DNA from: a virus
Lineage: Duplodnaviria > Heunggongvirae > Uroviricota > Caudoviricetes
Length of the DNA stretch: 24,534 nt
IMG/VR virus record: IMGVR_UViG_2698536676_000006
Direction: 5' to 3' (one strand)
Below the pieces are notes generated by a model. It ran no database searches, was not told where the DNA came from, and worked only from the letters and a program-made list of their open reading frames with translations. A program made the position numbers and the translations under genes. Position 1 is the first letter of the stretch; each line of letters starts with the position of its first letter. This document shows, one piece after another, positions 1-24,534 of the stretch.

Positions 1-149
1 GGTTGAGAAGCGGTGTAAGTGAACTGCAGTTGCCATGTTTTACGGCAGTGAGAGCAGAGATAGCGCTGATGTCCGGCGGTGCTTTTGCCGTTACGCACCA
101 CCCCGTCAGTAGCTGAACAGGAGGGACAGCTGATAGAAACAGAAGCCAC
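1..149 (-). CDS. insA: IS1 InsA, 5' partial (GTG start at 149, runs off the window)
   Basis: Reverse complement reads GTGGCTTCTGTTTCTATCAGCTGTCCC..., i.e. [48 protein letters not shown], the InsA N-terminus with its zinc-finger cysteines. Confidence 0.75.
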
Positions 150-204
150 TGGAGCACCTCAAAAACACCATCATACACTAAATCAGTAAGTTGGCAGCAT
201 CACC
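1..204 (-). mobile_element. IS1 left-end fragment (terminal inverted repeat plus insA 5' region); element continues left of the window
   Basis: Bases 1-204 are the exact reverse complement of 24331-24534 and match my recollection of the first 204 bp of IS1 (GGTGATGCTGCCAACTTACTGAT...CACCGCTTCTCAACC). Confidence 0.9.
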
Positions 205-557
205 TCATTCTTGATAAATATAATGTAACAGTCCCTTTAACTGTAAATATAGGGAAAGGCTTTGATATTTCTTATCTCAACAGTGTTGTTATCGGTCACA
301 AAGTAACAATCGGTGAAAATTGTTCAATAAAACCGGGGGTAACTATTGGGCTACGTGGTGATTTTAATGATATGGATATTGTTATAGGACATAATGTGAC
401 CATTGGTTGTAATGCCACCATTCTTGGTGGCAAAGTGCGTATAGGAAACAATGTCACAATAGGTGCTCATGCATTGGTATTGCATGATATTCCTGATGAT
501 TCAACATTCATCACTAAATTTCAGTCTGAAGTTATCTGCTCGTCCTCCCGCACATAA
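205..557 (+). pseudogene. Hexapeptide-repeat (left-handed beta-helix) acetyltransferase, N-terminally truncated by IS1
   Basis: The reading frame is open from the IS1 boundary; translation ...VVIGHKVTIGENCSIKPGVTIGLRGDFNDMDIVIGHNVTIGCNATILGGKVRIGNNVTIGAHALVLHDIP shows repeated [LIV]-G-x-x-x-x hexapeptides. The tool ORF 372..557 is only the part after an internal Met. It sits where P2 carries Z/fun, after the tail fibre assembly gene. Confidence 0.6.
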
Positions 558-1138
558 CCCTGATTCATCAGCTCTGGCCATACGATATCCGGAGCTGTAC
601 TGGTGTCAATTCTACTCACTAATACTCTGTATTTTCTCCAGGAATCCAGTTGTGAATTTTCCTCGTTTGTTGCTATTTCAAGATTAACTGCATCCTGCAG
701 AATTGCGATGTTATCTGTTGCCTCCTGGATCAACCTTGCCTTTTTCTCTTCCGCTTCCCGTATCCGAAACAGCTTTTCTGCTTCCTCATCCTTCACCCAG
801 GATACGCCGTCCCACTTCTGATATTCCCCTGCTGGCGACAACCAGGTGACATTCTCTGGTAGCGGTCCGGGTTCAGAAATAAACAACGCGTCCCCCGATG
901 CCACGTCATAGACCGTTTTACCACGATGGTCTTCAACAATATTCCACGATTCATTTTCACTGTTAAAAATTGCCACAAAGCCAGCAGGAATTTCCGGTGG
1001 GGCGATATCTGTAGAATTAGCTGGCAGCCCTGTATGAGGTGGAATATATGCGTCACCTTCACCAATAAACTCATTAGTTCCGGCCAGCAGGTTATAAATT
1101 TTTACAGTACGTGATTGTTCACTCATTCTGAATGCCAT
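521..1138 (-). CDS. Tail fibre assembly protein (P2 gpG / lambda Tfa-like chaperone)
   Basis: 205 aa; C-terminal ...[23 protein letters not shown] is typical of Tfa chaperones; start codon overlaps the tail fibre stop (TAATG) directly downstream of the fibre gene. Confidence 0.85.
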
Positions 1139-3795
1139 TATGCAAGCCTCACAATATAATTAAATGCGATGTTTTTAACGGTGTTTTCCGCGTTACCAGC
1201 AGCGTTAACGGTGATGGTATGTCCATGTGAACCAATCGCAACAGAGTGCGTATGAGCGCCAATACCAACAGTGTGTGCATGTGCCCCAGCACTTGTAGCG
1301 GTACCTGATACTGAGTGGGTATGTGCGCCAGAAGAAGGCACAGTTCCATTCCCCACCACCGTGCCACTTGATGCACCATCCAGCCAGTCGAAATTCATAC
1401 CGCCACTGTTTGGTCTCCTTAATGGAACGGTATGAGTATGTGCGCCAGCACTATTTGCAGTACCAGATACATTGTGGGTATGTGCACCTGTGTTATTCGT
1501 TGATTTAGTACCGTAATCAAACGAAGATGTGGTTTTCGTACCCAAATCCGTATTGGATGCGCTGGCGCTGTGGGTGTGCGATTTAATGCCATCCTGTTCC
1601 AGAGACAATACGTCCCGACCACTGGCGGGTTTGCCCTTGATTGTCCAGCCACGCATATCCGGGATCACGCCTGACGGATAAGCGGCTGCAAGTTTCGGGT
1701 ATGCAGATTTGTCAAAAGTCTGTCCCTGCATCAGGGCGTAACCAGACGGCACAGTATCTGATGGCCACGGCAGCGGAACACCTGGCGGAAACGCTTCAAT
1801 ATTTGCCGAGCCGTCAAATTTTACGCCGTTAATTGTCCTTGCCGTTTTCAGCTTTGTTGCTGTAGCAGCATTGCCGGATAGTTCGCCTGAAAGACCACCG
1901 CTGAATGTCTGTTTCGCCGCCCATGTCTGAGCTTCGTCGATAATTGGCACACGTCTTGTCGTAATCGTGCGGCTTCCCGGATTTCCTGAAATGCGAACCA
2001 TAAAAAAGCGGTAATTCGCTTTACTTACAGTGCTGCGCCATACATGCATTGAGCGCCCCGTACCAGAATCATCACTCGGACCAACTGCGATGTTTATCAG
2101 GTTGCCATCAATGACGCCCCAGTCCATACCGTCGGGAATATTGGTCATGTTATCAAGCCGAACGGTTATCAGACTGCCCGGCACAAAATCGTAGGTCTGC
2201 CAGTCCAGGCTGGTGAGTTTTGCCACTGCGCCACCGATACCCAGATTCAGGGGAAGTGAATAAGATGTGTAAACTTCCCGCCATTCGCTCCACGAGCTGC
2301 CGGTATAAACGCGCTCAAACGTGCGACCTTTAAGGGTTGCACCTGTTCCGGCGGTTGTATAACGTTGCCATACGTTAACGCCATCAAAGCGCCTCAGCAC
2401 TTCCAGAATACCGAGTACAGTCACGCCGTTTCCGTCCAGTATTGGACCATTGGTCGCTTTACCTGTAACGCTGTAAATACCTGGTGAGGTTACATCATTC
2501 AAATCACCGTCGTAATAACGGCTTTCTGACTGGTAGCCCACTCTTGACCACGGCTCCCATTGTGGGTTCTCTGCATCCCACGAGGCCGAAAGACAGCGAA
2601 CATAAACATTTCCACGGCGGGTCGTGTAACGCTGCGTTCGCGAGTAACCACCACCTTCAAGAACTTCAAGGAGTCCCTGACCATAACTTCCTTCTTCCGG
2701 ATAGTTGCGGTCAAATGAAGCGATTGAGCCACTACTGTTTCGCCATAAACCAAGATGCTCTGCGCCTCCGAGCGTGTTCAGGTCAATGGTTGTGCTCAGG
2801 GGGCGTGTTGCAGACTGAACCTGACGCCAGTAACTCCACGGACCGTCTGAACCATTCCATGTGCCAGAAAGGTTGCGCATATAAACATTGCCTGTTCTGG
2901 TGGTGTAACGCTGCATTCCTGCAAAATTACCGCCATTGAATACCTCCAGTACACCGACTGCACCGTCTTCAGGGAAATTTTTAGCAGCCGTCGCGTTAGT
3001 GGATGTAGCTTTAGACCAGACGCCAAGATAAGCCTTAACGGGACCAAATGTATTCAAGTCAGCATCAAGCGGCATTTCGCCATTGTTTTTCATAAACGTC
3101 AGGCTGGTAACGCCAACATTGTCCAGAAAAGCGCCCTTATCTGGAATATCGTCACCGTTCTGGTCTTTCTGCATACGTTTTTCAGCATTGTCATAGGCTG
3201 CTTTTACTGCCTTTGGCGTTGCCGCCAGCTCTTCACTGGTGCTGTTTGTTGCGCTACTTAACTGAGTAAAACCTTTTTCTGTCAGCGTGGCGTCAGGATG
3301 GCGGCGGGATTGCTCATGCTCTGCGATTTTGTCATCGACGTAATCCTGCGTCGCCATCACTGTGCTGGCATCAATACTCAGCTCAACGGACGCTACGTTG
3401 CTGACAGTAATAACCATGCGGCAGGTCTGCGCGCGCCCGGAGCCTTCAGCGAGTTCAGGCTTATAGCTTTCCGCCATGTTAGCGACCGCAATCAGTGTTC
3501 CGGCATCGTCATACAGACCCAGCTCACGCATCCAGAAGCCGCCCACTTCTGGCGGTACAACCAGTTCAGCCACGATATAGTTTTTATTCTTGTTATCCAC
3601 GCTGACTTTATTCAGAGCGTGACGCCAGACCTCATGCACCAGTTTCGTCTGACCGGCATCCGGCACCGGCAATTTGCCATTACCGTCACCCACGGCCATT
3701 GCAGACAGAGTTACTTTTTTCCCGCCGGGGACAGTGGCGGCTGCCAGCTTCGCGGCTCCGGCAGTAGTGATAGCGGTTTTAAATTTCGTGCTCAT
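1138..3795 (-). CDS. Tail fibre protein (P2 gpH-like N-terminus, mosaic His-rich C-terminal tip)
   Basis: 885 aa; N-terminus [20 protein letters not shown]...[10 protein letters not shown]...[29 protein letters not shown] matches the conserved P2 gpH N-terminal domain; three internal repeats of LEV-x-GG...QRYTTR-x-GNVY-x-R; C-terminal GAHTH-x-VSG repeats. Confidence 0.9.
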
Positions 3796-3805
3796 TGTTT
3801 CTCAC

Positions 3806-4333
3806 TTATCCGGGATAAACAGTAATAACATCACCATCACAGACCACACCGCCTGTATACAGATAGCCGGGAATGTCCTGGATAATGTTCAGGCCGATAA
3901 GGTGGCGACTTGCGGGTTTGGCATCGGCAATCAGCCGTTCCATTTCCAGATACATTTCCTCGGTCACACCACTGTCCAGCGTGCCAACATCAACCTTGAA
4001 TGTTCCGGGTTCGCCGTCGAACTCCCACCACTCAGACACGCGAATGAGGTATCCCAGCGGCTCAATGGCCCGGCGCAGTGCGCTGATGGTCCCTTTGTGT
4101 CGGTGTATCAGCCATGCATCACGAATAACCTGTCGCTTTGTCTCTTCCGGCCAGTTGCGATCCCAGCGGTCAACGGAAAATGCCCAGGCGAGATAAGGCA
4201 GCAGATGCACCGGGCAGGTGTCCGGTGACCACAGCGTGTTGAGGTCTACCGGGATGTTTGTAATGCGCGCTCCGACAGCTTCGGCGCAACGCATGAAATT
4301 GCTGGCTGATGGTGGTAACAGTGAATTACTCAT
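3806..4333 (-). CDS. Baseplate assembly protein I (P2 gpI-like)
   Basis: Follows gpJ in P2 order. I prefer the ATG at 4331-4333, preceded by AAGGTGG and lying 2 nt after the gpJ stop, over the tool's GTG start at 4366. Confidence 0.8.
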   Translation of the reverse strand: MSNSLLPPSASNFMRCAEAVGARITNIPVDLNTLWSPDTCPVHLLPYLAWAFSVDRWDRNWPEETKRQVIRDAWLIHRHKGTISALRRAIEPLGYLIRVSEWWEFDGEPGTFKVDVGTLDSGVTEEMYLEMERLIADAKPASRHLIGLNIIQDIPGYLYTGGVVCDGDVITVYPG

Positions 4334-5576: not shown

Positions 5577-5980
5577 TGTGGGCCTCCTGTCGAATCGCTG
5601 CCGCCTTTCACGCCACCGTGTTTATGCGTATGCACTGTAATGCCGTTTGAGGTGAAGTTGCCGCCGCTGTGCGTGATATTGCCGCTCATCTTTCCTCCTT
5701 TTGTGACGTCAAGCGTCGCCGTTCTCAGAAGGTTTGTGCATTCCACGACGGGCGTATCCAGTTTCACGCTGACGGATGCCTGTAAAGTGGCCGTTTTCAT
5801 GCCGCTGGCGCTCAGTGCGCCAGCGTCCGCGTCGTAGCGGAACACCGCGCCGTCCGGCGCGCTGATCACGATTTCTTTCAGGCTTTTGCCGGGGGCCGGA
5901 CTGGCATCACTCCACAGGCTGCCAATTATCATGGCGGTTACGGCGATCTGTGCCGTCATAACTGGTATTCGTGCGCGCAA
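5573..5980 (-). pseudogene. Baseplate spike gpV, C-terminal fragment, fused out of frame to the capsid remnant
   Basis: ISAPDGAVFRYDADAGALSASGMKTATLQ...KLDTPVVECTN...GGKMSGNITHSGGNFTSNGITVHTHKHGG resembles the C-terminal half of P2 gpV; the N-terminal half is missing. Confidence 0.7.
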
Positions 5981-7232: not shown

Positions 7233-8495
7233 ATGATTCAGGACGCTTTTGTGCGCCAGCGTGCGCGGCAACTTTACTGGCAGGGTTATCCGCCCGCAGA
7301 AATATCACGTCTGATGGGAATAAACCCGAACACGATTTATGCGTGGAAAAAACGCGACCAGTGGGATGAAACGCCCCCCGTGCAGCGTGTCACGCAGTCC
7401 ATCGATGCGCGCCTCATCCAGCTTACTGAAAAACAGAATAAAACAGGCGGTGACTTTAAGGAAATAGACCTGCTGACCCGGCAGCTTAAAAAGCTGCATG
7501 ATGGCCAGCCGGATGTGATGGCCGCAGGAAAGAAAGGCCGGGCGAAAAAACTTAAAAATCATTTCACGCCGGAACAGATTGCCGCACTGCGGGAAAAAAT
7601 CATCAGCAGGCTGGAGTGGCATCAGCGGGGCTGGTTTGACTCCCTGACACTTTGCAGGGAAGCCGGGATACGTAACAGGATGATCCTGAAATCCCGACAG
7701 ATTGGGGCGACCTGGTATTTTGCACAGGAAGCTCTGCTGATGGCGCTGCGTGACGATGTGGCGCAACCTTACCAGCGTAACCAGATTTTTTTGTCTGCGT
7801 CGCGTCGTCAGGCGTTCCAGTTTAAAAGCATTATTCAGAAGGTCGCGGCTGAAGTTGATGTGGAGCTGAAAGGGGGCGATAAAATCATCCTCTCCAACGG
7901 CGCAGAGCTGCATTTTCTCGGCACTTCTGCTGCGTCGGCACAGTCCTATACGGGCAATTTTTATTTTGATGAATTTTTCTGGGTCAGTCGCTTTGCTGAA
8001 CTGCGCAAGGTGGCTGGCGCTATGGCAACCCTCAGCGGACTGCGGCGCACCTACTTCTCCACGCCATCCACCGAAACGCACGAGGCGTACGCCTACTGGA
8101 ACGGCGACCGCTGGAACGAGAAAAAGGCCTCGCATAAACGCCAGCGTTTTTCTGTGGACTGGAAAACGCTGCATAACGGGCTTATCTGCCCTGACCGGAC
8201 TTGGCGGCAAATTGTCACGCTGGAAGATGTGGTTAATCACGGCTGGAAACACACCGATATCGACGAAATTCGTGATGAAAACACCGAAGACGAGTTCCTC
8301 AATCTCTATATGTGTGAGTTTGTCCGCGAAGGGGAATCGGCATTTAACCTGAATATCCTGATTGGCTGCGGTGTTGACGGATACGACGACTGGAAAGACT
8401 GGAAACCTTTTGCTCCCCGCCCGATGGGGAATCGTCCGGTATGGATTGGGTATGACGCAAACGGCAGCAGTGGCAACGGCGACATGCCAGCTTGA
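7233..8495 (+). pseudogene. Terminase ATPase subunit (P2 gpP-like), C-terminally truncated
   Basis: 420 aa with N-terminal ...LYWQGYPPAEISRLMGINPNTIYAWKKRDQWDE; P2 gpP is about 590 aa as I recall. The ORF ends shortly after VWIGYDA, and portal Q, cos and the tin/old region expected between P and A are absent. Confidence 0.75.
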
Positions 8496-8560
8496 TGTTG
8501 GTGGAGCCGTCGTCGATACAAATTTTCATGTCGCTTTTCCTTATGTTGATTAATTAATCG

Positions 8561-8670
8561 TTTACGGGATTCTGAAATCCCGTTTTTGCCTGTTTTATGC
8601 GCGCTTCATATATCGCGGCGCGTTTTTTGCTCATTTACGGGATTTGTGAATCCCGTTTCTGTCTGTTTTT
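8561..8670 (+). repeat. Two diverged direct repeats (8561-8596, 8634-8670), each an 8-bp-stem hairpin ACGGGATT-N4-AATCCCGT followed by a T-run
   Basis: Read directly: tttacgggattctgaaatcccgtttttgcctgtttt and tttacgggatttgtgaatcccgtttctgtctgttttt. Confidence 0.6.
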
Positions 8671-11872: not shown

Positions 11873-12103
11873 TTAATGGAGTTTGTTTTGCTGCTGGATG
11901 AGCTGTTGAAGCTCGTGCAGATCATCCGCCAGATAGCTGAAAACAGAGGCGGAATAAATGTTTGATAGTGCGTGGCTGCGCTCATGCAGCATATTGATGT
12001 GCATGATTTGCGCGACGCGTGATGCGCGGGAAAGTCTGTGGTTGATTTCAGTCTGGATGTGACGACGCTCCGCGATAGTGCGGTGCTGTTTGCGGTCTGC
12101 CAT
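11873..12103 (-). CDS. Hypothetical early-operon protein (76 aa, basic, no Cys)
   Basis: ATG at 12101-12103 with AGAGG upstream; no recognisable domain. Confidence 0.5.
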   Translation of the reverse strand: MADRKQHRTIAERRHIQTEINHRLSRASRVAQIMHINMLHERSHALSNIYSASVFSYLADDLHELQQLIQQQNKLH

Positions 12104-12425
12104 GGTGTGGCCTCTTTGCTCGGTGATAGAAATAACTCACCATCCAGAGTTGAGAATCTCGGGGTGGCGAGACGTACAGGGTTCTCAACACCGGAGAGCA
12201 AAGAATCCGGCCCGACCGAAGTCGGCCCCGTACGCCCCGCCATAATTCTGACGCGAAAAAGACGTGGCAATACAGTGCGCACAAAAAAACCGCTTGCGCG
12301 GTTATGCGCTTTGCTCTGTATCGGGTTGAGAATCCCGGCACCCGTTTTATGAGCTGCAGCGGAAATGTAACCTGACCGATTGAGGCATGGCAAGCGGTTT
12401 TTTTGTGTGTGCATGTTCTGGTTTC
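12104..12425. other. Structured non-coding gap inside the early operon: nested direct and inverted repeats; candidate ncRNA or regulatory/origin-like element
   Basis: GTTGAGAATC[T/C]CGG at about 12150 and 12325, inverted partner GTTCTCAAC at about 12175; CTTTGCTCT / AGAGCAAAG copies; 18-bp inverted repeat cacaaaaaaaccgcttgc at 12281-12298 and 12391-12408; hairpins TCTCG-N6-CGAGA, CCGGA-N9-TCCGG, GGCCCGAC-cgaa-GTCGGCC. Confidence 0.4.
12283..12310 (-). terminator. Candidate rho-independent terminator (AACCGC-gcaa-GCGGTT then TTTTTTTG on the minus strand)
   Basis: Plus strand reads caaaaaaaccgcttgcgcggtt; on the minus strand the hairpin is followed by a 7-T run. Confidence 0.5.
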
Positions 12426-12725
12426 TTACTGGTTCAGAAAAAAATCAAAAACGTTATCGATGCGTTGCAGCAGCTCTTGCTGCATTGCTTCCGGCGTTTC
12501 CGGTTCGCCAGGTGCCCCCAGCGTTGCGCAGAAATCAGCGATTTCATGATGGAGCGTGAGGCGAATGGCAGGAGCCGTGGTTCTGGCGTGCTCCAGCTGA
12601 TCCAGCAGTGCCAGCACAGCAGACGGCGAGAGCATTGCGCGAAATGCCAGTAATTTTTGAGGCGTTGCCATTCGTTGCAGGGCAAATGCCAGTTCGTGTA
12701 GCTTCTGGTGGTTGATGGTGCTCAT
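12426..12725 (-). CDS. Hypothetical protein (99 aa)
   Basis: ATG with GAAGGAAG Shine-Dalgarno; start overlaps the upstream stop (ATGA). Confidence 0.55.
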   Translation of the reverse strand: MSTINHQKLHELAFALQRMATPQKLLAFRAMLSPSAVLALLDQLEHARTTAPAIRLTLHHEIADFCATLGAPGEPETPEAMQQELLQRIDNVFDFFLNQ

Positions 12726-12988
12726 GCTCTGGCTTCCTTCAGTAGCTGGTTAAACATGTGAGTAAGTGGATTGCTACACCCGAACAGCATCGGGTTTACG
12801 TGGTAAGAAGCCTGGCCTCCTGTTTTGCGAGCGCGACCACCTGTGCTGCGGTTTGTTCTGATGACTAAGCCGCCGCGCCAAAGTCGGCGTAACTCAGCAT
12901 TAATGGCTGTGGTTGGGGTATTCAGTGCTGCGGCGATCTCTCCGCCGCTACACCCCGGATGAGTAGCGATGTAGTCCAGAATGGTCAT
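12722..12988 (-). CDS. Putative winged-helix DNA-binding protein (88 aa)
   Basis: MTILDYIATHPGCSGGEIAAALNTPTTAINAELRRLWRGGLVIR looks like an HTH / winged-helix; AGGAG Shine-Dalgarno; ATGA overlap with the upstream gene. Confidence 0.6.
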   Translation of the reverse strand: MTILDYIATHPGCSGGEIAAALNTPTTAINAELRRLWRGGLVIRTNRSTGGRARKTGGQASYHVNPMLFGCSNPLTHMFNQLLKEARA

Positions 12989-15668: not shown

Positions 15669-16319
15669 ATGGCCGTCAACTCAAACGGTTCAAACAATCG
15701 CGTTGCTGGGCGTGATTTTCACGAAAAGAATATTCAGATAGAGCGATATGATGGTTCTCATACCGTCAATATCGCAATCCCTTCGAATAATGATGATGAC
15801 GATCGCCCTTTGCTTAAGGCTCAGCGTAAGGAGCTAAATAGCTTGGTTGCTGCTATTGCAGAAGCTAGCAATACTGAAGCGTTTATTATTTGGCAAAAAG
15901 TACATGCGGAGATTGGTGTAGCTGGTATTGATGATATGACAGTAAATCAATATAAAACAGCGGAGAGTTTTCTGCATGCAATGCTTGAGCGATGTAAAGA
16001 TCATGATGCCTGTAAGGCTCTTGTAAGTTTATTACTACGTAACAGTGAAGACTGTGGACTTCGACAAAAACTTCTGCGGTATTGCCATATCAATTTCGGT
16101 ACAGGACGTTTAAACGATCTTACTCGTTCTCAGTTACAGTCTGCATTGTCGTGGTTAGAGCAACAATCGGCATCAAGCCACACAGAGAGTTCGACCTTAC
16201 CAGAAGTCCGACTTCGTGCTTCAGAATTAATCCGACTTTATCCAAAAGAAATAATATTCTTTATCTGCGTAGGGGTTTTGGTAGGCGGTGTCATTTCTAG
16301 GGCGTTTTTTAATTTGTAA
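15669..16319 (+). CDS. Cargo gene: 216-aa protein with C-terminal transmembrane anchor (candidate superinfection-exclusion / abortive-infection protein)
   Basis: GGGAGG Shine-Dalgarno; C-terminal IIFFICVGVLVGGVISRAFF hydrophobic helix; N-terminal SNGSNNRVAGRDFHE echoes the repressor C-terminus ISGGNNRIAGRDYNE; lies where P2 has repressor and integrase adjacent. Confidence 0.65.
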   Translation: MAVNSNGSNNRVAGRDFHEKNIQIERYDGSHTVNIAIPSNNDDDDRPLLKAQRKELNSLVAAIAEASNTEAFIIWQKVHAEIGVAGIDDMTVNQYKTAESFLHAMLERCKDHDACKALVSLLLRNSEDCGLRQKLLRYCHINFGTGRLNDLTRSQLQSALSWLEQQSASSHTESSTLPEVRLRASELIRLYPKEIIFFICVGVLVGGVISRAFFNL

Positions 16320-16348
16320 TCTTACTTGAGCTAAATTGAGGTAATGAT

Positions 16349-16696
16349 ATGAAAGTAAAAAAGGTTCAACTATTAGTTACTTTTTTATCTATGTTTTCTT
16401 TTTCCGCCGTCGCAATGCCTTTTAAAACTATTGAACGTGAGAGTTTCAATGGGGTATGGCCATTTAATACTGATGAGGTTCAATTACAGTGTCTTGATGG
16501 TAATCCTTATGTGATGAATTTTGACGATAATAAGTTATATGCACTTACAGGTTTGGCTCGAATAAAAGGTAAAACATTTGGTGCGTTACCGTTAGATAAC
16601 AATAATCCATTTTGGCTAGATAATGATGCCGCCCCAGGGTTAAAAAAGAGCCTGGGGGATGTCACTAAGGCTGCATTTGATTTATGTGATAAGTAA
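16349..16696 (+). CDS. Cargo gene: small secreted protein with signal peptide and two Cys
   Basis: MKVKKVQLLVTFLSMFSFSAVA-MP signal-peptide-like N-terminus; GAGG Shine-Dalgarno; Cys in QCLDG and DLCDK. Possibly DUF2511-like; unverified. Confidence 0.65.
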   Translation: MKVKKVQLLVTFLSMFSFSAVAMPFKTIERESFNGVWPFNTDEVQLQCLDGNPYVMNFDDNKLYALTGLARIKGKTFGALPLDNNNPFWLDNDAAPGLKKSLGDVTKAAFDLCDK

Positions 16697-16701
16697 CTAA
16701 A

Positions 16702-17703
16702 ATGTCGGTTCGTAAGATTCCATCAGGTAAATGGCTTTGCGAATGTTATCCCTACGGGGCATCGGGAAAACGCATTCGTAAACAGTTTGCGACAAAAAGT
16801 GAGGCGCTCTCTTATGAGCGCCGTTTAATGAATAGTAGAGTTGGAGACGAGTTTCAAGATGGTTCTGGTCCTCGTCTTTCTGAGTTGATTGCTCGTTGGT
16901 TTGAGATGTACGGTAAAACCTTGTCCTCTGGTGCAGAGCGCAAAGTCAAACTTGAGGCGATTTGTTCCAGGCTGGGAGATCCATTTGCTTCTCAGTTTGA
17001 CAAAAATATGTTTGCCACTTATCGGGAAAGAAGGTTATCAGGAGAGTGGAATCCCAAGGGGAAGAAAAAACTTAGTGAAGCAACCGTTAATCGCGAGCAG
17101 TCATATCTACATGCTGTTTTTGCCGAACTGAAGCGCCTTGGGGAGTGGTCTGGTGAAAACCCCCTGACTGGTATTCGCAAGTTTCGTGAGGAAGAAAAGG
17201 AACTGGCGTTTCTGTATGTAGATGAGATTGAACGCCTTCTGATTGCGTGTGATGAGTCACGGAATAAAGATTTGGGGGTTGTTGTCCGTATTGGGCTTGC
17301 GACTGGTGCTCGGTGGAGTGAAGCAGAAGGGTTAAAGCAATCTCAAGTACTGCCCGGTCGAATCACATTTGTTAAAACTAAAGGAAAGAAGAACCGCACT
17401 GTACCGATTTCACCTCAATTGCAGGCTATGCTTCCCAAAAAACGAGGAGCGCTATTTTCACCATGTTATGAGGCTTTTGACGCTGCAATTAAGAGAGCGA
17501 AGATCGAGCTTCCTGATGGGCAATTAACTCATGTGCTACGTCACACGTTTGCCAGTCATTTTATGATGCGGGGCGGAAATATTCTTGTGTTGCAAAAAAT
17601 ACTGGGGCATAGCGATATAAAAATGACTATGCGTTATGCGCATTTTGCTCCAGGTCATTTAGAGGCTGCTGTTGAATTGAACCCTTTTGACAATAGAGGG
17701 TAA
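16702..17703 (+). CDS. int: P2-type tyrosine integrase
   Basis: 333 aa; TGARWSEAEGLK, ITFVKTKGKKNRTVPIS, HVLRHTFASHFMMRGGNILVLQKILGH, YAHFAPGHL align with P2 Int as I recall it. Confidence 0.9.
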   Translation: MSVRKIPSGKWLCECYPYGASGKRIRKQFATKSEALSYERRLMNSRVGDEFQDGSGPRLSELIARWFEMYGKTLSSGAERKVKLEAICSRLGDPFASQFDKNMFATYRERRLSGEWNPKGKKKLSEATVNREQSYLHAVFAELKRLGEWSGENPLTGIRKFREEEKELAFLYVDEIERLLIACDESRNKDLGVVVRIGLATGARWSEAEGLKQSQVLPGRITFVKTKGKKNRTVPISPQLQAMLPKKRGALFSPCYEAFDAAIKRAKIELPDGQLTHVLRHTFASHFMMRGGNILVLQKILGHSDIKMTMRYAHFAPGHLEAAVELNPFDNRG

Positions 17704-17809
17704 AAAGTGGCGATAAAAAGTGACAATAGATTCAAATGGCGTTGTATAGAGCCATTTTCAAAGTTAATAAAATCATAAGGTTATGATTTATAAATGGTGG
17801 TTGATAGTT

Positions 17810-17864
17810 TTTAAAATCCCTCGGCGTTCGCGCTGTGCGGGTTCAAGTCCCGCTCCGGGTACCA
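17810..17864 (+). tRNA. 3' fragment (about 55 nt, from the anticodon loop to CCA) of tRNA-Leu(UAA), leuZ-like; integration-site core, not a complete tRNA
   Basis: TTTAAAATCCCTCGGCGTTCGCGCTGTGCGGGTTCAAGTCCCGCTCCGGGTACCA: T-arm GCGGG-TTCAAGT-CCCGC, long variable arm, acceptor 3' strand plus ACCA; no 5' half upstream. Confidence 0.65.
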
Positions 17865-17905
17865 TGGGAAAGACAAGAATAATCAAAGCAATAAGCAGTG
17901 TCGTG

Positions 17906-17930
17906 AAACCACCTACGGGTGGTTTTTTTG
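17906..17930 (+). terminator. Rho-independent terminator (AAACCACC-tacg-GGTGGTTT plus T-run)
   Basis: Read directly from sequence. Confidence 0.6.
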
Positions 17931-17964
17931 TGCCTGAAATTCACGCCCTGTGCATATCCTGTGC

Positions 17965-18846
17965 TCACGGGGTGCAATGAGCCGCAATCTCCAGCCTGGC
18001 AATGCCGAATCGAACGTGTCGCCTCCAGCATAGAGAACCAGGCCGCTTTGCCTGTTTTCCGGTACTCTTCCGGGAAGGGTGGCCTGCTGAGCAAGTTGTA
18101 ATGCTCTGGCCGCCCTTAGTACAAAGTTGCTTAATTCGTGCAATCACCTCATCTCTGTACTTCTGGTGTCCGCGCATAGCCCTTGGATGGGCAATTCTGA
18201 AACAGATTGTATTACCTGTTTTGAACTCCCACAGCTTCCCCGGAATGACTGAAGAAGTCTCATAACCGCCCAGCTCAGTAAGCACCTGTTTAATGATGTA
18301 GTCTGTTCTCCGGGCTCCGGATGCAAAGATCATGAAATCAGGCTCAAGGTGTTTAATTTGTACCGCCAGCAGCTTCAGCGAGGCTAATATGACTTCCTGC
18401 ACTTCATTTTGAGGGCGATTGAGAGGGGTCAGTCCGTCGTAATCCCACGCCAGTAGATTGGCATACACGATAGCCTGAGGAGGAATATTAAGCTCCCGGG
18501 CCAGCCTGAAATGATATTGCGTGAAGCGGCTACGTGATTTGAGGTTGGTGGTGCCATCATTTTGTACCGGAAGATGTTTCCTGTAACGATCTACAGCTTC
18601 TTCAACCACCTGCCCGATGGTGACGTCAGGCATAAGTCCCAACACCCGTGATATCGTATTCTTACCATTCAGCGTATTCCAGCCTGCGGTTTCACGTCTA
18701 ACCAGCATGATTTTTACCGGTGAATGCCAGTATTCTTCAAACGGCACGGGTAAAAAGACGCCTGAGTATTTATCTTCATTCAGGTTAAATGACTGGGCGT
18801 CAACTTCCTGTAATATCCGTTTGTACGCGTCTAATAGCCTTTCCAT
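17965..18846 (-). CDS. Hypothetical protein (293 aa) between the tRNA fragment and the P4-type integrase; C-terminal 50 aa low-complexity, possibly non-native
   Basis: Long ORF, no family recognised; Cys/Arg/Ser-rich tail. Confidence 0.55.
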   Translation of the reverse strand: MERLLDAYKRILQEVDAQSFNLNEDKYSGVFLPVPFEEYWHSPVKIMLVRRETAGWNTLNGKNTISRVLGLMPDVTIGQVVEEAVDRYRKHLPVQNDGTTNLKSRSRFTQYHFRLARELNIPPQAIVYANLLAWDYDGLTPLNRPQNEVQEVILASLKLLAVQIKHLEPDFMIFASGARRTDYIIKQVLTELGGYETSSVIPGKLWEFKTGNTICFRIAHPRAMRGHQKYRDEVIARIKQLCTKGGQSITTCSAGHPSRKSTGKQAKRPGSLCWRRHVRFGIARLEIAAHCTP

Positions 18847-18926
18847 TCTTCAATCCTGCCCCGTAATAAAAACACCTTCAGATATATATTATTTTCATGA
18901 TATCAATCAGATATATGAGGATAAAT

Positions 18927-20126
18927 ATGCAAAAATCCTTCCGATTCACCAATTCATCCATCAAAGCCCTTCCGGCAAACACAGATACCCGATCTACAGA
19001 GCTTGAGGTATCCGATACTGAGGTCATTGGCCTCAAATGCCTCTCAGGTCGAACGGGTAACAAACGTTTCCTCCTGCGCTACACATTCCACGGTACCAAA
19101 AAAAGTATCAGTATTGGCAGATTCCCTGAAATTGATGTGGGGACAGCCCGTCAGATAGCTCGTCGTCACAAGGAGGCGATTGCACTGGGAAATGACCCTA
19201 AGGCAGAACGCGATAATTATCGTGCTATGCCAACGCTTAGTGAGTTTTTTCACCAGACCTATGTTCCGTTCATCAAACGCCATAAAAAGTCCTGGGATAA
19301 GGATGTTCAGCGTTTCACGCAATACATTGAACCTTGTCTGGGGAAGATACGTTACTGTGACCTTCGGGCCCGGGAAATCCAGCAGGTGCTTTTCGACATG
19401 CTTGAGGGTCGTATTCACGGGCAGCAATATGCGCCGTCTACCTGTAACAGAGCCCTTGCTATTCTGAAAACGATGGGGCGTTATGCGTTGCGACAGGATG
19501 TGCTGGAAAAGAATGAAGCCGATAAGATCCCTTTACTGAAAGAGAATAATCAGCGGACGCGCTTTTTTGATGCTGATGAGATCAGGCGCATTCTTGACGC
19601 TGCTACCCAATATCCCAACAAAGCTGCCGGGGGATTGATAGCCATGTTGTTGTTAACCGGTACACGCAAAACAGAAATGCTTAATGTCAGGCATGAACAT
19701 ATCGACCGGGCCAATCGTACTCTGTTCATTCCTTATACAAAAAATGGTCGCAGTCGGACGGTATATCTAAGCGATGCCGCATTATCGATTATTGATGCTA
19801 TCCCACGAGTTGGCAGTAATCCGTATCTGTTCGCCATTAAGGATAATGGCAAACCGATATCGGAACCCCGATGGGCATATGAAAAAATACTGGCACAGTG
19901 CGGTATAGACAAGAATGAAGTCTGTTTTCACACCACACGTCATTCTGTTGCCTCTTTACTGGTTTCGAGTGGTCAATTCAGCCTGTATGACGTTAAAGCC
20001 CAACTGGCGCATGCCAGTATTCAGAGTACAGAACGTTACGCGAAATTAACACCGGAACGTATGCGTCAGACAGGGCAGGGAGTGACTGACCTGCTTCTGA
20101 ATACTGCGGCTACGAAGCAGATGTGA
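18927..20126 (+). CDS. int: P4-family tyrosine integrase (genomic-island type)
   Basis: N-terminal arm-binding domain (...GLKCLSGRTGNKRFLLRYTFHGTKKSISIGRFPEIDVGTARQIARRHKEAIALGNDPKA) and catalytic region (...TRHSVASLL...ERYAKL); ATG at 18927 with GAGG Shine-Dalgarno preferred over tool start 18897. Confidence 0.85.
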   Translation: MQKSFRFTNSSIKALPANTDTRSTELEVSDTEVIGLKCLSGRTGNKRFLLRYTFHGTKKSISIGRFPEIDVGTARQIARRHKEAIALGNDPKAERDNYRAMPTLSEFFHQTYVPFIKRHKKSWDKDVQRFTQYIEPCLGKIRYCDLRAREIQQVLFDMLEGRIHGQQYAPSTCNRALAILKTMGRYALRQDVLEKNEADKIPLLKENNQRTRFFDADEIRRILDAATQYPNKAAGGLIAMLLLTGTRKTEMLNVRHEHIDRANRTLFIPYTKNGRSRTVYLSDAALSIIDAIPRVGSNPYLFAIKDNGKPISEPRWAYEKILAQCGIDKNEVCFHTTRHSVASLLVSSGQFSLYDVKAQLAHASIQSTERYAKLTPERMRQTGQGVTDLLLNTAATKQM

Positions 20127-22233: not shown

Positions 22234-22461
22234 ATGTATAAAACTCGCGGTGAAAGGATCGCAGAAAGGCTGTGCTGGATATTACTTCAACTGTATACCG
22301 GTAATACGGTATCGGTTAATGATATATGTCAGCGTTTCGCGGTCAGTCGCCGAACCGGACAGCGTGATTTGTTGAGAGTTGAAACTGTAACGGAAACTAT
22401 TTCACCTGGAAGGGTAAGGCTGGCAAGTTTGATAAGGGAACGAGTTAGACGAAATTTTTAA
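22234..22461 (+). CDS. Small HTH protein (75 aa) resembling the N-terminal DNA-binding domain of a WYL/DeoR-type regulator
   Basis: ERIAERLCWILLQLYTGNTVSVNDICQRFAVSRRTGQRDLLRVE parallels [40 protein letters not shown] of the WYL protein at 23423-24325. Confidence 0.5.
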   Translation: MYKTRGERIAERLCWILLQLYTGNTVSVNDICQRFAVSRRTGQRDLLRVETVTETISPGRVRLASLIRERVRRNF

Positions 22462-22496
22462 TCGAATCCATATCAATACTATAAAATATGAAAATT

Positions 22497-22522
22497 AACG
22501 GGAGTAAATATATACTCCCGTT
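22497..22522. terminator. Hairpin between convergent genes (AACGGGAGTA-N6-TACTCCCGTT), T-rich on both sides
   Basis: 10-bp perfect stem read directly. Confidence 0.5.
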
Positions 22523-22542
22523 ATAATGCAACCTTTTTTTAA

Positions 22543-23361
22543 CTACTCAAATGATATTAATTTAGGTGCGACAGTGTTTTTATGATGTGTTGAATTTGCA
22601 AGATTAATAATATCATGAAATGATTTCATGTCGTCGTCAGTGATTTCTAGGGCTGGATCAGCTAAATCGGCACAGGTAACATTTAACCAGTGTGTTAATG
22701 AATCAATCCTGTTTGAAGTAATATATTCAGTGTGACCAATATTCCACTTCCAGTTGATTATCCGAGCAGGTCTGAATCTCACCTCCCGAACCCCAATTGG
22801 CGTTACTGACTCTACGAGAGGGTATATCGTGTTAAGTACTTTATCATGTTCACTGTAGATATTTAAATGCCCCATTTTTGAACCGTAAGCCATTTTCATT
22901 ATGTTCTCTGTATAACTTGTTATTGGGGTGGCTCCGGCCATAGAGATTGTTAAGAGAATATTATCATTTTTAATATAGGGTAATGTATTGTTTATTAATC
23001 GAGTCCCTAAAGAATGACCCATTATGATCACATTACGCTTTTCTTTAACGTATATCTCGTTTATTACGTGTGCTAATTTTTCTCTGTTATTAACTGCTGC
23101 TTTCGTTGCATTATACCAGGCCTGACGCGCTTTAAATGGAATGGAGATTGATGACAATAAAGGAGATGTTCTCAGGGGGAAGAGAGTATATAACCCCCAC
23201 TTGTTCGCTATGTCAGAACTTAATATGGATAGTAGATTTGCCGATTCCCATTTATAGTATCTGACATCAAGGCCACACCCTGCTTTAATTCGGTTAAACC
23301 ATGATATATCATTTTCGGTCAGAAACCCTGATACAACAAGAAGAACCGGGCATTTTTTCAT
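22543..23361 (-). CDS. Alpha/beta-hydrolase-fold serine hydrolase (esterase/lipase-like), candidate effector
   Basis: 272 aa; IIMGHSLGTRL carries a G-x-S-x-G nucleophile elbow; GGAG Shine-Dalgarno; AT-rich. Confidence 0.7.
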   Translation of the reverse strand: MKKCPVLLVVSGFLTENDISWFNRIKAGCGLDVRYYKWESANLLSILSSDIANKWGLYTLFPLRTSPLLSSISIPFKARQAWYNATKAAVNNREKLAHVINEIYVKEKRNVIIMGHSLGTRLINNTLPYIKNDNILLTISMAGATPITSYTENIMKMAYGSKMGHLNIYSEHDKVLNTIYPLVESVTPIGVREVRFRPARIINWKWNIGHTEYITSNRIDSLTHWLNVTCADLADPALEITDDDMKSFHDIINLANSTHHKNTVAPKLISFE

Positions 23362-23422
23362 GGTAACTCCATTTTTTAGCTTACAAAAATAGCACTCAAT
23401 GAAAATTATATTATCCGTGTCA

Positions 23423-24325
23423 TTACGGGGCGTTACTTGGCTGGGTGTAACGTTTCAGTGCGGATTGTATATCTTCAGCAAGTTGTTGACGGATTGAGGC
23501 CGGTTGTATTACTTCGACATCCGGTATCCAGTATTTCATTAAAGGCATTATCTGATCTGTGTGTGTTACACGTGATATCACCAGTAAATCGCCAGACCGG
23601 GAAGTATGAATTATTTCCTGTCCTGGCAATAGATGACGGTGGGTAAACCACGGAGCAACATGTGCGGAAACTGAAATAAGAGCTTCGATAAGGTCTTCGC
23701 TATACCAGATACCATCTGTCTTTTCTATTTTTTCATTAATTTCGGGGATTATCCTGAAAGAGATATTACTCATGCAAACGTCTTTGACAGATGAGATAAC
23801 AAAGCTTTTTAATGTACTGTCATGGGCGGCAGCGAGATACCACAATCCGTTGTCATTAACCAGTCTGTATGGCTCAACAGCCCGAAACTCTTTATCTTTG
23901 TAATTAAAATTTACTTTCTTCTGTGACAGGATGGCATCGGATAATACATTCAGAATTGACATGAATGATCCGCAGTTTTCGTATGGACGTTGTTTTATCA
24001 GAAACGGGTTGTTTTTCGTGTTACCTAACAAAATACTCAGTAGTCTGTCATCCCAGCGAGGGAACAGCCCTTCAATACCCAGGATGCGCGTGAAATGACG
24101 TAAATCAGCATTGCTGCGTTGACCGAGAACACCGTCAGACAGGCGATAGCGACCATTTTGTCGAATCAGATTAAGATAGGACAGGCGCTGAGTAAGATCA
24201 CGACGGATAGTTTTTTCGCAAACGTTAAATTCCTCAGATAACTCCCGGACGGCTAGTGACTCACCATTGTTCAGGCGAGTTAATATCAATCCGAGTCGAT
24301 ATCCAAGTTTATCGTGCTTACCCAT
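23423..24325 (-). CDS. WYL-domain transcriptional regulator (HTH-WYL architecture, BrxR/CapW-like)
   Basis: 300 aa; N-terminal HTH ([35 protein letters not shown]), central LWYL motif ([12 protein letters not shown]); ATG lies 5 bp from the IS1 end. Confidence 0.75.
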
Positions 24326-24330
24326 TCATT

Positions 24331-24534
24331 GGTGATGCTGCCAACTTACTGATTTAGTGTATGATGGTGTTTTTGAGGTGCTCCAGTGGCTTCTGTTTCT
24401 ATCAGCTGTCCCTCCTGTTCAGCTACTGACGGGGTGGTGCGTAACGGCAAAAGCACCGCCGGACATCAGCGCTATCTCTGCTCTCACTGCCGTAAAACAT
24501 GGCAACTGCAGTTCACTTACACCGCTTCTCAACC
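24331..24534 (+). mobile_element. IS1 left-end fragment; element continues right of the window
   Basis: GGTGATGCTGCCAACTTACTGATTTAGTGTATGATGGTG...CACCGCTTCTCAACC matches the IS1 5' end. Confidence 0.9.
24386..24534 (+). CDS. insA: IS1 InsA, 5' partial
   Basis: GTG GCT TCT GTT TCT ATC AGC TGT CCC..., the InsA N-terminus. Confidence 0.75.

Follow-up and report, generated by a model that had tools for sequence, protein, structure and literature searches.

A probable hybrid attachment site between a P2-like prophage and a defence island in a tandem array at the Escherichia coli leuZ gene

The Islander database contains 125 arrays of at least two tandem islands at tRNA/tmRNA genes (PMC4383910). 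In such arrays an intact tRNA gene lies at one end and is followed by displaced 3' fragments that share its orientation; every member has one integrase and one fragment, and attachment (att) sites centred on the anticodon are designated class A. The leuZ gene is known as a site of prophages and integrative elements (PMC7067040, PMC8767318, PMC4313913). The reports on STEC O145:H28 (PMC7067040), the APEC O78 island (PMC4313913) and the STEC O121:H19 prophages (PMC8767318) share the chromosomal site treated here, but list it and leave the hybrid att junction undissected. Escherichia phage 520873 (Peduoviridae, Xuanwuvirus; NC_049344) is also found at leuZ, and the lambdoid phage mEp390 (NC_019721; virion-derived), Fostie and ZF40 have an attP that carries the 3' half of leuZ together with its 3' external transcribed spacer (3'ETS). 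Phage P2 has an annotated attP core of 27-28 bp and is not known to integrate in a tRNA gene. P4 is found at leuX, and its core, annotated as 20 bp, sits at the 3' end of that gene. Here we present the organization of the leuZ locus in the genome NZ_LR883050.1, which is the source of the stretch of 24,534 nt under study (hereafter the window).

Positions 17810-17864 (+ strand) of the window correspond with 0 mismatches to the 55 nt at the 3' end of leuZ, the E. coli gene for tRNA-Leu(UAA); the identity (55/55) was checked directly against leuZ as annotated in K-12 and against the intact tRNA-Leu(taa) gene of the source genome, and 100 shuffles gave no match of the 55-nt segment. The displaced segment begins with base 1 of the anticodon loop (TTTAAAA) and ends with CCA. 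No tRNA was found in the window by ARAGORN, nor by Rfam at the gathering score. At a permissive E-value, Rfam missed the half tRNA and yielded in positions 17650-18000 only a 17-nt match to the tmRNA T-arm and terminator look-alikes, so that the identification of the fragment rests on direct alignment. An earlier note on the window had described just such a 55-nt fragment starting in the anticodon loop, with no intact tRNA in the window, within about 100 bp of a P2-type integrase and followed by a terminator, a minus-strand gene and a second integrase. All of these features are present; 106 bp separate the end of the first integrase ORF (17703) from the fragment downstream of it.

The stretch homologous to the leuZ locus is longer than these 55 nt. 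It measures 127 nt (17810-17936) and takes in, beyond the tRNA part, a variant form of 3'ETS-leuZ as well as the terminator and GTGCCTG. The 3'ETS-leuZ small RNA is a sponge of RyhB and RybB. Aligned with K-12 across the 129-nt block, the window copy shows four differences, every one within the 3'ETS. The copy of this small RNA, an island-type variant that includes the terminator hairpin, was located at 17865-17929 (+) by alignment to the annotated K-12 ncRNA; it measures 65 nt versus 67 nt in K-12, owing to a 2-nt AA deletion, and carries the substitutions T>C at 17874 and T>A at 17915. The hairpin AAACCACC-UACG-GGUGGUUU followed by U7 (17906-17929) folds like the native leuZ operon terminator; a simple consensus terminator scan did not list it, and it is supported by the fold and the K-12 annotation. 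The RyhB-pairing core AGCAAUAAGCAGUGUCGUG is unchanged, and pairing with RyhB is predicted. By its sequence the window 3'ETS has the features of a sponge, as it lies directly 3' of the leuZ segment, ends in the operon terminator and contains the core. The identity blocks end within 17930-17936 (+), as determined from a four-way alignment (K-12 and the three copies described below) and the blastn limits: phage homology stops at 17931 (…TTTTTTTGT) and island homology at 17936 (GTGCCTG), which places the island junction at 17936/17937.

In NZ_LR883050.1 the intact glyW-cysT-leuZ comes first. A P2-like prophage of ~27 kb separates it from the window copy, and an island of ~33 kb separates the window copy from a third copy, beyond which lies yecA. 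Intact leuZ occupies positions 12713-12799 of locus L004, and the three copies of its 3' part, all in one orientation (+), begin at L004 12745 (within intact leuZ), at 17810 of the window and at L006 4199. The first copy is followed downstream by phage DNA after TTTTTTTGT; the window copy has phage DNA on its left and island DNA on its right; the third has island DNA on its left and, on its right, the native K-12-type flank to yecA. From this order the window copy reads as a hybrid att site composed of the right end of the prophage and the left end of the island, and the region is very probably a hybrid attachment site within a tandem array at leuZ, serving at once as prophage right junction and defence-island left junction. 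Regarding the 3'ETS alleles, the first and third copies are K-12-type and the window copy has the AA deletion, as does the allele downstream of intact leuZ in L007, a locus that holds the island only. The copies first differ at 17874, so that both crossovers fall within 17810-17873, and, as judged from the alignments, the region in which both integrations crossed over lies in the segment 17810-17864. As in the Islander arrays, an intact tRNA gene is accompanied by displaced 3' fragments that share its orientation, every member is equipped with an integrase and a fragment of its own (P2-type integrase with the window copy, island integrase with the third copy), and the att site is centred on the anticodon (class A). 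Nothing essential distinguishes the locus from those arrays, but its identity block of 122-127 nt is unusually long because it continues past the tRNA through the regulatory 3'ETS RNA and the terminator.

Within a survey set of 5,426 complete E. coli genomes, the leuZ site was empty in 3,791 and occupied in ~30%. The phage junction lay directly beside the yecA flank in 502 genomes, the island left end was detected in 434, and the exact tandem junction was found in 30, across which it is 97-100% identical. The order leuZ-island-phage, searched for with a chimeric query, was found in 0 complete E. coli genomes. The island alone resides at leuZ in L007, and the phage alone in phage 520873 and the 502 E. 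coli genomes. O145 genomes match the window junction with an identity of 97.3% over the full 1,301 bp query. The tandem arrangement at leuZ is ordinary, the site being already known to collect mobile elements. The successive integrations at one tRNA gene that the earlier note had proposed are supported by the three copies, by the separate integrase of each element and by the occurrence of each element alone elsewhere; the intact gene and the yecA-side copy, which were to be sought in the full genome, were both located, and the unoccupied locus that was to serve for comparison is the commonest state in the survey.

The integrase of the prophage is a P2-type tyrosine integrase of 333 aa (16702-17703, +; Pfam Int_N and Phage_integrase), a designation made earlier from the window and sustained by a full-length comparison with P2 Int (38% identity, E 1e-74). 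As in P2, the gene is transcribed toward the att site, ogr lies on the opposite side of att, and arm-type repeats occur on both arms; a difference is the 122-nt block at the leuZ anticodon loop, as opposed to the much shorter annotated core of P2. The Int-proximal att arm (17704-17809, +) contains three AAGTGGCGAT-like candidate arm-type Int sites (17705-17714, 17718-17727 and 17734-17743, +). A matching triplet is present on the opposite prophage arm (L004 12883-12914), and the only two perfect copies in the 48 kb of L004 are placed one per arm, flanking the prophage; the arm triplets are probably Int sites. The annotated genes follow the P2 gene order and include the P2-family capsid, GPO scaffold, ogr, gpD, tail and replication endonuclease A. 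Phage 520873 is 97.7% identical in int and att to positions 16304-17933 of the window, but has yecA directly after att, without an island, and the window prophage has lost ~9 kb of structural and lysis genes. Compared with an intact relative in strain 99-3165, two deletions of ~5.0 kb and ~3.9 kb are evident, and collinearity with that strain is broken across the prophage. The losses comprise the portal gene, pieces of the genes for capsid and large terminase, and the genes located between the baseplate gene V and the capsid gene; gpV, capsid and large terminase are annotated as pseudogenes by PGAP. With its set of virion and lysis genes thus incomplete, the prophage could not serve as a helper.

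The island encodes a tyrosine integrase of 399 aa with P4-type architecture (18927-20126, +; Pfam Arm-DNA-bind_3 and Phage_integrase), the start of which is 18927, not 18928. The arm-type DNA-binding domain (PF13356) was recognized with an E-value of 3e-14 and the catalytic domain with 4e-23. The enzyme had been assigned to the P4 family in the earlier note; its domain architecture agrees with this, but kinship to P4 Int itself is only distant (23% identity, E 2e-8). The gene is kept beside leuZ in L007 and L008, two loci with the island only. A motif search revealed CCTGTGC-N4-YCTGTGCTCA at 17947-17967 (+), with one occurrence in the window and 0 expected by chance; among all loci compared it is confined to both island ends (second occurrence at L006 4070-4090), and the pair is a candidate arm-type site of the island integrase. 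The annotated cargo consists of defence genes (type I R-M, DUF262, Hhe) and IS elements and varies by strain, the island measuring 33 kb here versus 19.8 kb in strain 99-3165. Rfam gave zero matches over the island part of the window, and the left 4 kb of the island had no match in the phage collection.

The minus-strand gene at 17965-18846 had been regarded as an orphan. The ORF is present, but with the island junction at 17936/17937 it falls within the island, and it is island cargo. Its product is 96% identical to the 246-aa protein P0001 and belongs to an uncharacterised family of ~246 aa. The conserved portion of the gene is 18109-18846; in the DNA alignment the stop codon is lost (TAG>CAG), and read-through extends the frame by 47 codons (17968-18108). 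The 'missing C-terminus' annotated by PGAP was rejected, as the alignment indicates stop-codon loss and read-through and no truncation. The AlphaFold2 model (pLDDT 90) had as best PDB matches in Foldseek family 4 UDG, UdgX, SMUG1 and TDG (E 1.8e-5 to 1e-3, TM 0.4-0.58), and the product is modelled with the alpha/beta fold of the uracil-DNA-glycosylase (UDG) superfamily. Searches of Pfam, NCBIfam, PADLOC and PDB sequences yielded no match for this gene, and PHROGs yielded one family of unknown function only. The family has near-invariant G-R-E-T-A-G and H-P-R motifs that may be akin to motifs A and B of UDG; at the near-invariant G50 the window copy carries R. A role of the gene in the integration module was considered and rejected, since the homologues in Pectobacterium and Stutzerimonas have no adjoining integrase. 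The divergent intergenic region between this gene and the island integrase gene, delimited by the ORF map and PGAP, is 18847-18926; no consensus promoter was found in it.

Regarding the history of the locus, the att of each element would carry leuZ from the anticodon loop onward, 3'ETS-leuZ and the operon terminator, and each tyrosine integrase would exchange strands at or near the anticodon loop. Such an exchange would rebuild an intact leuZ from the chromosomal 5' half and the 3' half of the element, and would shift the resident 3' part downstream. A crossover at the anticodon loop is in part general knowledge. In part it is taken from the Islander paper (PMC4383910). The island would have entered first, leaving its variant 3'ETS behind intact leuZ and moving the native copy beside yecA; integration of the phage into the rebuilt leuZ would then have brought the island-borne allele to 17810-17936. 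This order (island first, prophage second) is the most likely one; it is preferred because integration needs an intact attB and because the reverse arrangement was not found. Entry of the phage into native leuZ, followed by entry of the island into the right junction of the phage, would produce the same final arrangement and the same allele pattern, but is unlikely. At the right junction of the phage, the 5' arm of the anticodon stem, which belongs to attB, is missing (ATAGT versus AGGGA in leuZ), the island adjoins intact leuZ in island-only genomes, and the lack of any genome with the order leuZ-island-phage suggests that the island is the older and less mobile resident; the leuZ element is described as probably ancestral in O145:H28, though missing from various strains (PMC7067040).

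The earlier note had further seen in the island a satellite next to its potential helper, that is, a P4-like element that would exploit the adjoining P2-like prophage for packaging. The island does share with P4 an integrase with arm-type and catalytic domains and a tRNA-Leu target, and the neighbouring prophage is of the P2 family; but a tblastn search of the island in two strains with all 13 annotated P4 proteins (alpha, sid, psu, delta, epsilon, cI, vis and others) recovered the integrase only, and the genes of P4 for replication, capsid size and helper control are missing. At 20-33 kb, made up of defence genes and IS elements, the island is well above P4 size, the prophage has no portal gene and only partial capsid and large-terminase genes, and most of the 434 island carriers are without the phage, given that only 30 have the tandem junction. 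On these comparisons a satellite/helper pair is largely refuted and appears extremely improbable. Scarcely more credible is a single composite element, with the island as prophage cargo or vice versa and the middle fragment as an internal relic. The two parts are contiguous and their junction is well kept in the 30 genomes, but each is also found at leuZ without the other, equipped with an integrase and a repeat pair of its own, the two integrases are 25% identical in the catalytic domain alone, and distinct arm-type motifs mark distinct ends.

The leuZ 3' half and 3'ETS-leuZ now expressed in this ETEC strain are, as judged from sequence, phage-derived. That the 3' halves were borne by the elements is read only from the junctions in lysogens, and no free attP of the exact phage or island was recovered. 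Both integrases are intact and lie beside their own att copies. Homologous recombination between the 127-nt repeats could have reshuffled the alleles.

The finding matters little beyond correct annotation, in that the exact ends of two mobile elements are now fixed. It also serves as a warning that a P4-type integrase beside a P2-type prophage need not indicate a satellite/helper pair. mEp390 has the leuZ/3'ETS segment as its annotated attP, and in five other elements the identity block begins at the same base. mEp390 is another type of virus, and its integrase is unrelated (21% identity over part of the protein); the users of leuZ have unrelated or distantly related integrases and att blocks that share their start base. 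If the 3'ETS allele is borne by the element, each integration would replace the sponge allele expressed by the host with a phage- or island-type one. That every element at leuZ carries its own 3'ETS allele, and that the block (122-129 nt) is kept by selection on the RNA and terminator and not by the needs of recombination, is a speculative and rather doubtful proposal. Were it true, island-type alleles (AA deletion, 5' changes) could alter the level or processing of the sponge, and mobile elements would in this way tune the small-RNA noise in iron and envelope-stress regulation. The leuZ gene offers a convenient natural case of att-site competition and of the co-carriage of regulatory RNA in att sites.

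The window is part of an Escherichia coli chromosome, NZ_LR883050.1 (isolate L1_E925), where it occupies positions 1990232-2014765 with 100% identity over all 24,534 bases. Nucleotides 17810-17864 are the last 55 nt of leuZ without mismatch (0 of 100 shuffled sequences matched), an assignment backed by alignments to leuZ as annotated in K-12 MG1655 and to the source genome's own intact tRNA-Leu(taa). As the earlier note had read it, the fragment starts in the anticodon loop, at its first base (TTTAAAA, TAA anticodon included). The window was said to hold no intact tRNA: ARAGORN found none, and Rfam at gathering score returned only the C4 and isrK RNAs, both away from the leuZ fragment; the half tRNA also escaped a permissive Rfam search. 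The integrase ORF upstream ends at 17703, leaving a gap of 106 bp where about 100 bp had been estimated. The terminator placed after the fragment is a hairpin, AAACCACC-UACG-GGUGGUUU plus U7 (17906-17929), which was missed by a simple terminator scan but folds as the native leuZ terminator does. Homology to the leuZ locus reaches 17936 (127 nt here versus 129 in K-12, with four differences) and takes in the annotated small RNA 3'ETS-leuZ, the operon terminator and GTGCCTG; beyond 17936 the K-12 flank is left behind, and island DNA therefore begins at 17937.

The leuZ segment is present three times in the source genome, always in the same orientation. Copy 1 is contained in the intact leuZ gene of glyW-cysT-leuZ (12713-12799 of genome stretch L004) and continues into a K-12-type 3'ETS, with phage DNA directly after TTTTTTTGT. 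Copy 2, that of the window, has phage DNA before it and island DNA after it. Copy 3 (position 4199 of genome stretch L006) comes after island DNA and leads into the native flank, with yecA and tyrP. The intact tRNA and the further att copy sought in the full genome are thereby located. Measured from repeat to repeat, the prophage spans 27.3 kb and the island 33.2 kb; the layout is identical in the related ETEC strain 99-3165, with a prophage of 36 kb and an island of 19.8 kb.

Prophage and island are independent elements. Locus L007 carries the island without the phage: its intact leuZ runs into an island-type 3'ETS and then into the same left end of the island. The phage stands without the island in Escherichia phage 520873 (Peduoviridae, Xuanwuvirus), whose record has yecA directly after att and shows 97.7% identity to the window prophage in the integrase and att region. 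The three same-orientation copies and the occurrence of each element alone at leuZ bear out the proposed successive integrations at one tRNA. Across 5,426 complete E. coli genomes, searches specific for each junction found an empty leuZ site in 3,791, the window phage junction adjoining the yecA flank in 502, the island left end in 434 and the exact tandem junction in 30; a chimeric query built for leuZ-island-phage, the opposite order, had no match in any genome. Up to four copies of the att segment were counted per genome, which implies three elements in tandem at leuZ in some of them. Three of the places carrying the segment in this collection are on plasmids. Several 'complete phage genome' records (ON470604 and similar 20-27 kb 'vB_EcoM' records; NC_049344, whose integrase is annotated as two fragments) are prophage cut-outs that contain host yecA and the leuZ att junction.

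Over its full length the prophage integrase (333 aa) shares 38% identity with P2 Int, in keeping with its description as P2-type, and the prophage shares with P2 an int gene whose 3' end points toward att and an ogr gene past the other arm. For the island integrase (399 aa, 18927-20126), called P4-family, the architecture of Arm-DNA-bind_3 and catalytic domains holds, but closeness to P4 Int does not (only 23% identity). The two integrases share 25% identity, confined to the catalytic domain, and that of mEp390 is unrelated; unrelated or only distantly related integrases therefore use one site.

The minus-strand gene between fragment and island integrase (17965-18846) exists as described but is no orphan, being an island gene of a widespread family of about 246 aa (172 matches, nearest cluster of 3,071 members), labelled UDG-like in UniRef and given a family name in none of the sequence libraries searched. 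An AlphaFold2 model (pLDDT 90) matches structures of family 4 UDG, UdgX, SMUG1 and TDG (E 1.8e-5 to 1e-3, TM 0.4-0.58). Against the 246-aa form, the copy in the window shows 96% identity; TAG>CAG at 18106-18108 removes the stop and adds 47 codons running across the island att arm, so the PGAP label 'missing C-terminus' is misleading. At codon 50 (18697-18699) Arg replaces the near-invariant Gly of a G-R-E-T-A-G motif, so that, to judge from this substitution and the stop loss, the gene may be decaying. Its homologues have Mrr-type and PDDEXK nucleases as neighbors in Pectobacterium and unknown genes around them in Stutzerimonas, with no adjoining integrase in either; a role in the integration machinery was dropped on this account, and we read the gene as cargo.

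The suggestion that the island is of satellite type and the prophage its potential helper is not supported. When all 13 annotated P4 proteins were compared by tblastn with the islands of both strains, the integrase was the sole match, and the annotated island cargo in this genome consists of defense genes and IS elements: WYL-HTH regulators, DUF726, DUF2787 and two DUF262 proteins, a type I restriction-modification system accompanied by an M48 peptidase, the anti-phage helicase Hhe, interrupted by IS100, an IS1, and an IS3 with a group II intron. The prophage lacks the portal gene and parts of the large terminase and capsid genes. Two deletions show against strain 99-3165: one of about 5.0 kb, which starts within baseplate gene V, ends within the capsid gene and fuses the two, and one of about 3.9 kb, which takes the C-terminus of the large terminase, the portal gene and ParM partition genes (scars at 5936-5939 and 8483-8606). 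The prophage also carries an IS1. The prophage is defective and could not package anything, and the island is a defense island.

Within the island, the block 22234-24325 (a 75-aa HTH ORF; DUF726, 22543-23361, minus strand; a 300-aa HTH-WYL regulator, 23423-24325, minus strand) is conserved, the regulator being two ORFs in L007, and its setting looks defense-related. Both window ends fall inside IS1 copies: one (1-204) breaks an acetyltransferase-like gene in the prophage tail-fiber region, the other (24331-24534) cuts the island after the WYL-HTH regulator, past which the island of strain 99-3165 continues differently. In the prophage, C4 antisense RNA (12160-12247, 78.5 bits) and isrK (12283-12357, 59.5 bits) lie just upstream of a minus-strand 76-aa ORF (11873-12103) with 34% identity to P4 epsilon, a helper-derepression protein (tblastn E 5e-7); the minus-strand region 11873-12357, adjoining replication gene A, looks like a P4/P1-style RNA-controlled antirepressor module. 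Genes for a 216-aa membrane protein and a 115-aa DUF2511 protein (15669-16696, plus strand) separate the repressor-like HTH gene from int, whereas C and int are adjacent in P2; they are probably lysogenic-conversion cargo. A Hok/Gef toxin gene and a small hypothetical gene between the tRNA-proximal junction and ogr (L004 13340-13951; 8595-9206 of stretch L002 of strain 99-3165) are extra cargo beyond the window.

The 3'ETS is K-12-type in copies 1 and 3 and variant in copy 2 (T>C at 17874, a 2-nt deletion, T>A at 17915). The same deletion-type allele stands directly behind intact leuZ in island-only L007. An incoming element therefore brings along the allele on the right of the crossover and pushes the resident one downstream, which places both crossovers within 17810-17873. 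The 7-nt anticodon loop is presumably the overlap region. Identity blocks start at one same base in the window phage, the window island, vB_EcoM-720R5, mEp390 (virion-derived, lambdoid, attP annotated), Fostie and the Pectobacterium phage ZF40, which fits the anticodon-centered class that Islander lists among tRNA att sites (PMC4383910). Candidate arm-type sites of the prophage are three AAGTGGCGAT-like repeats at 17705-17743 and three at L004 12883-12914; across the 48 kb of L004 a perfect copy is found just twice, both times within these clusters. The island candidate, a 21-nt bipartite motif (CCTGTGC-N4-YCTGTGCTCA), occurs at the island's two ends (17947-17967 and L006 4070-4090), in every island-bearing locus fetched and in no other. 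Judged by these motifs, the integrases would bind there.

The present structure could have been reached by either integration order; we favor an order in which the island would have entered leuZ first and the phage second. Both attB anticodon-stem arms are kept in the tRNA-proximal copy only, in island-only genomes the island adjoins intact leuZ, and the opposite arrangement is seen in no genome. The leuZ 3' half, 3'ETS-leuZ RNA and terminator now transcribed in this strain would then be phage-borne, and copy 2 would be displaced, without a tRNA promoter of its own. 3'ETS-leuZ has been described as a sponge for RyhB and RybB (bioRxiv 10.1101/2021.04.25.441314). All element-borne copies from E. 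coli keep the RyhB-pairing core AGCAAUAAGCAGUGUCGUG intact, with every difference lying outside it, and the core is mostly conserved in mEp390 and Fostie. Each leuZ-using element has its own allele (17865-17929; L007 6904-6981; 2499-2619 of stretch L011), variable in the 5' part and terminator loop.

In the literature, leuZ is listed for O145:H28 as the site of an integrative element (PMC7067040), for APEC O78 as that of an island (PMC4313913) and for O121:H19 as a prophage site (PMC8767318); O145 genomes match the window junction at 97.3%. Tandem arrays whose members each bring an integrase and a fragment, as found here, are routine in Islander, which counts 125 arrays (PMC4383910). The locus is of an ordinary, already documented kind, and the fragment had been read correctly. 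The one mildly new point is that a regulatory RNA is co-carried within the att identity block.
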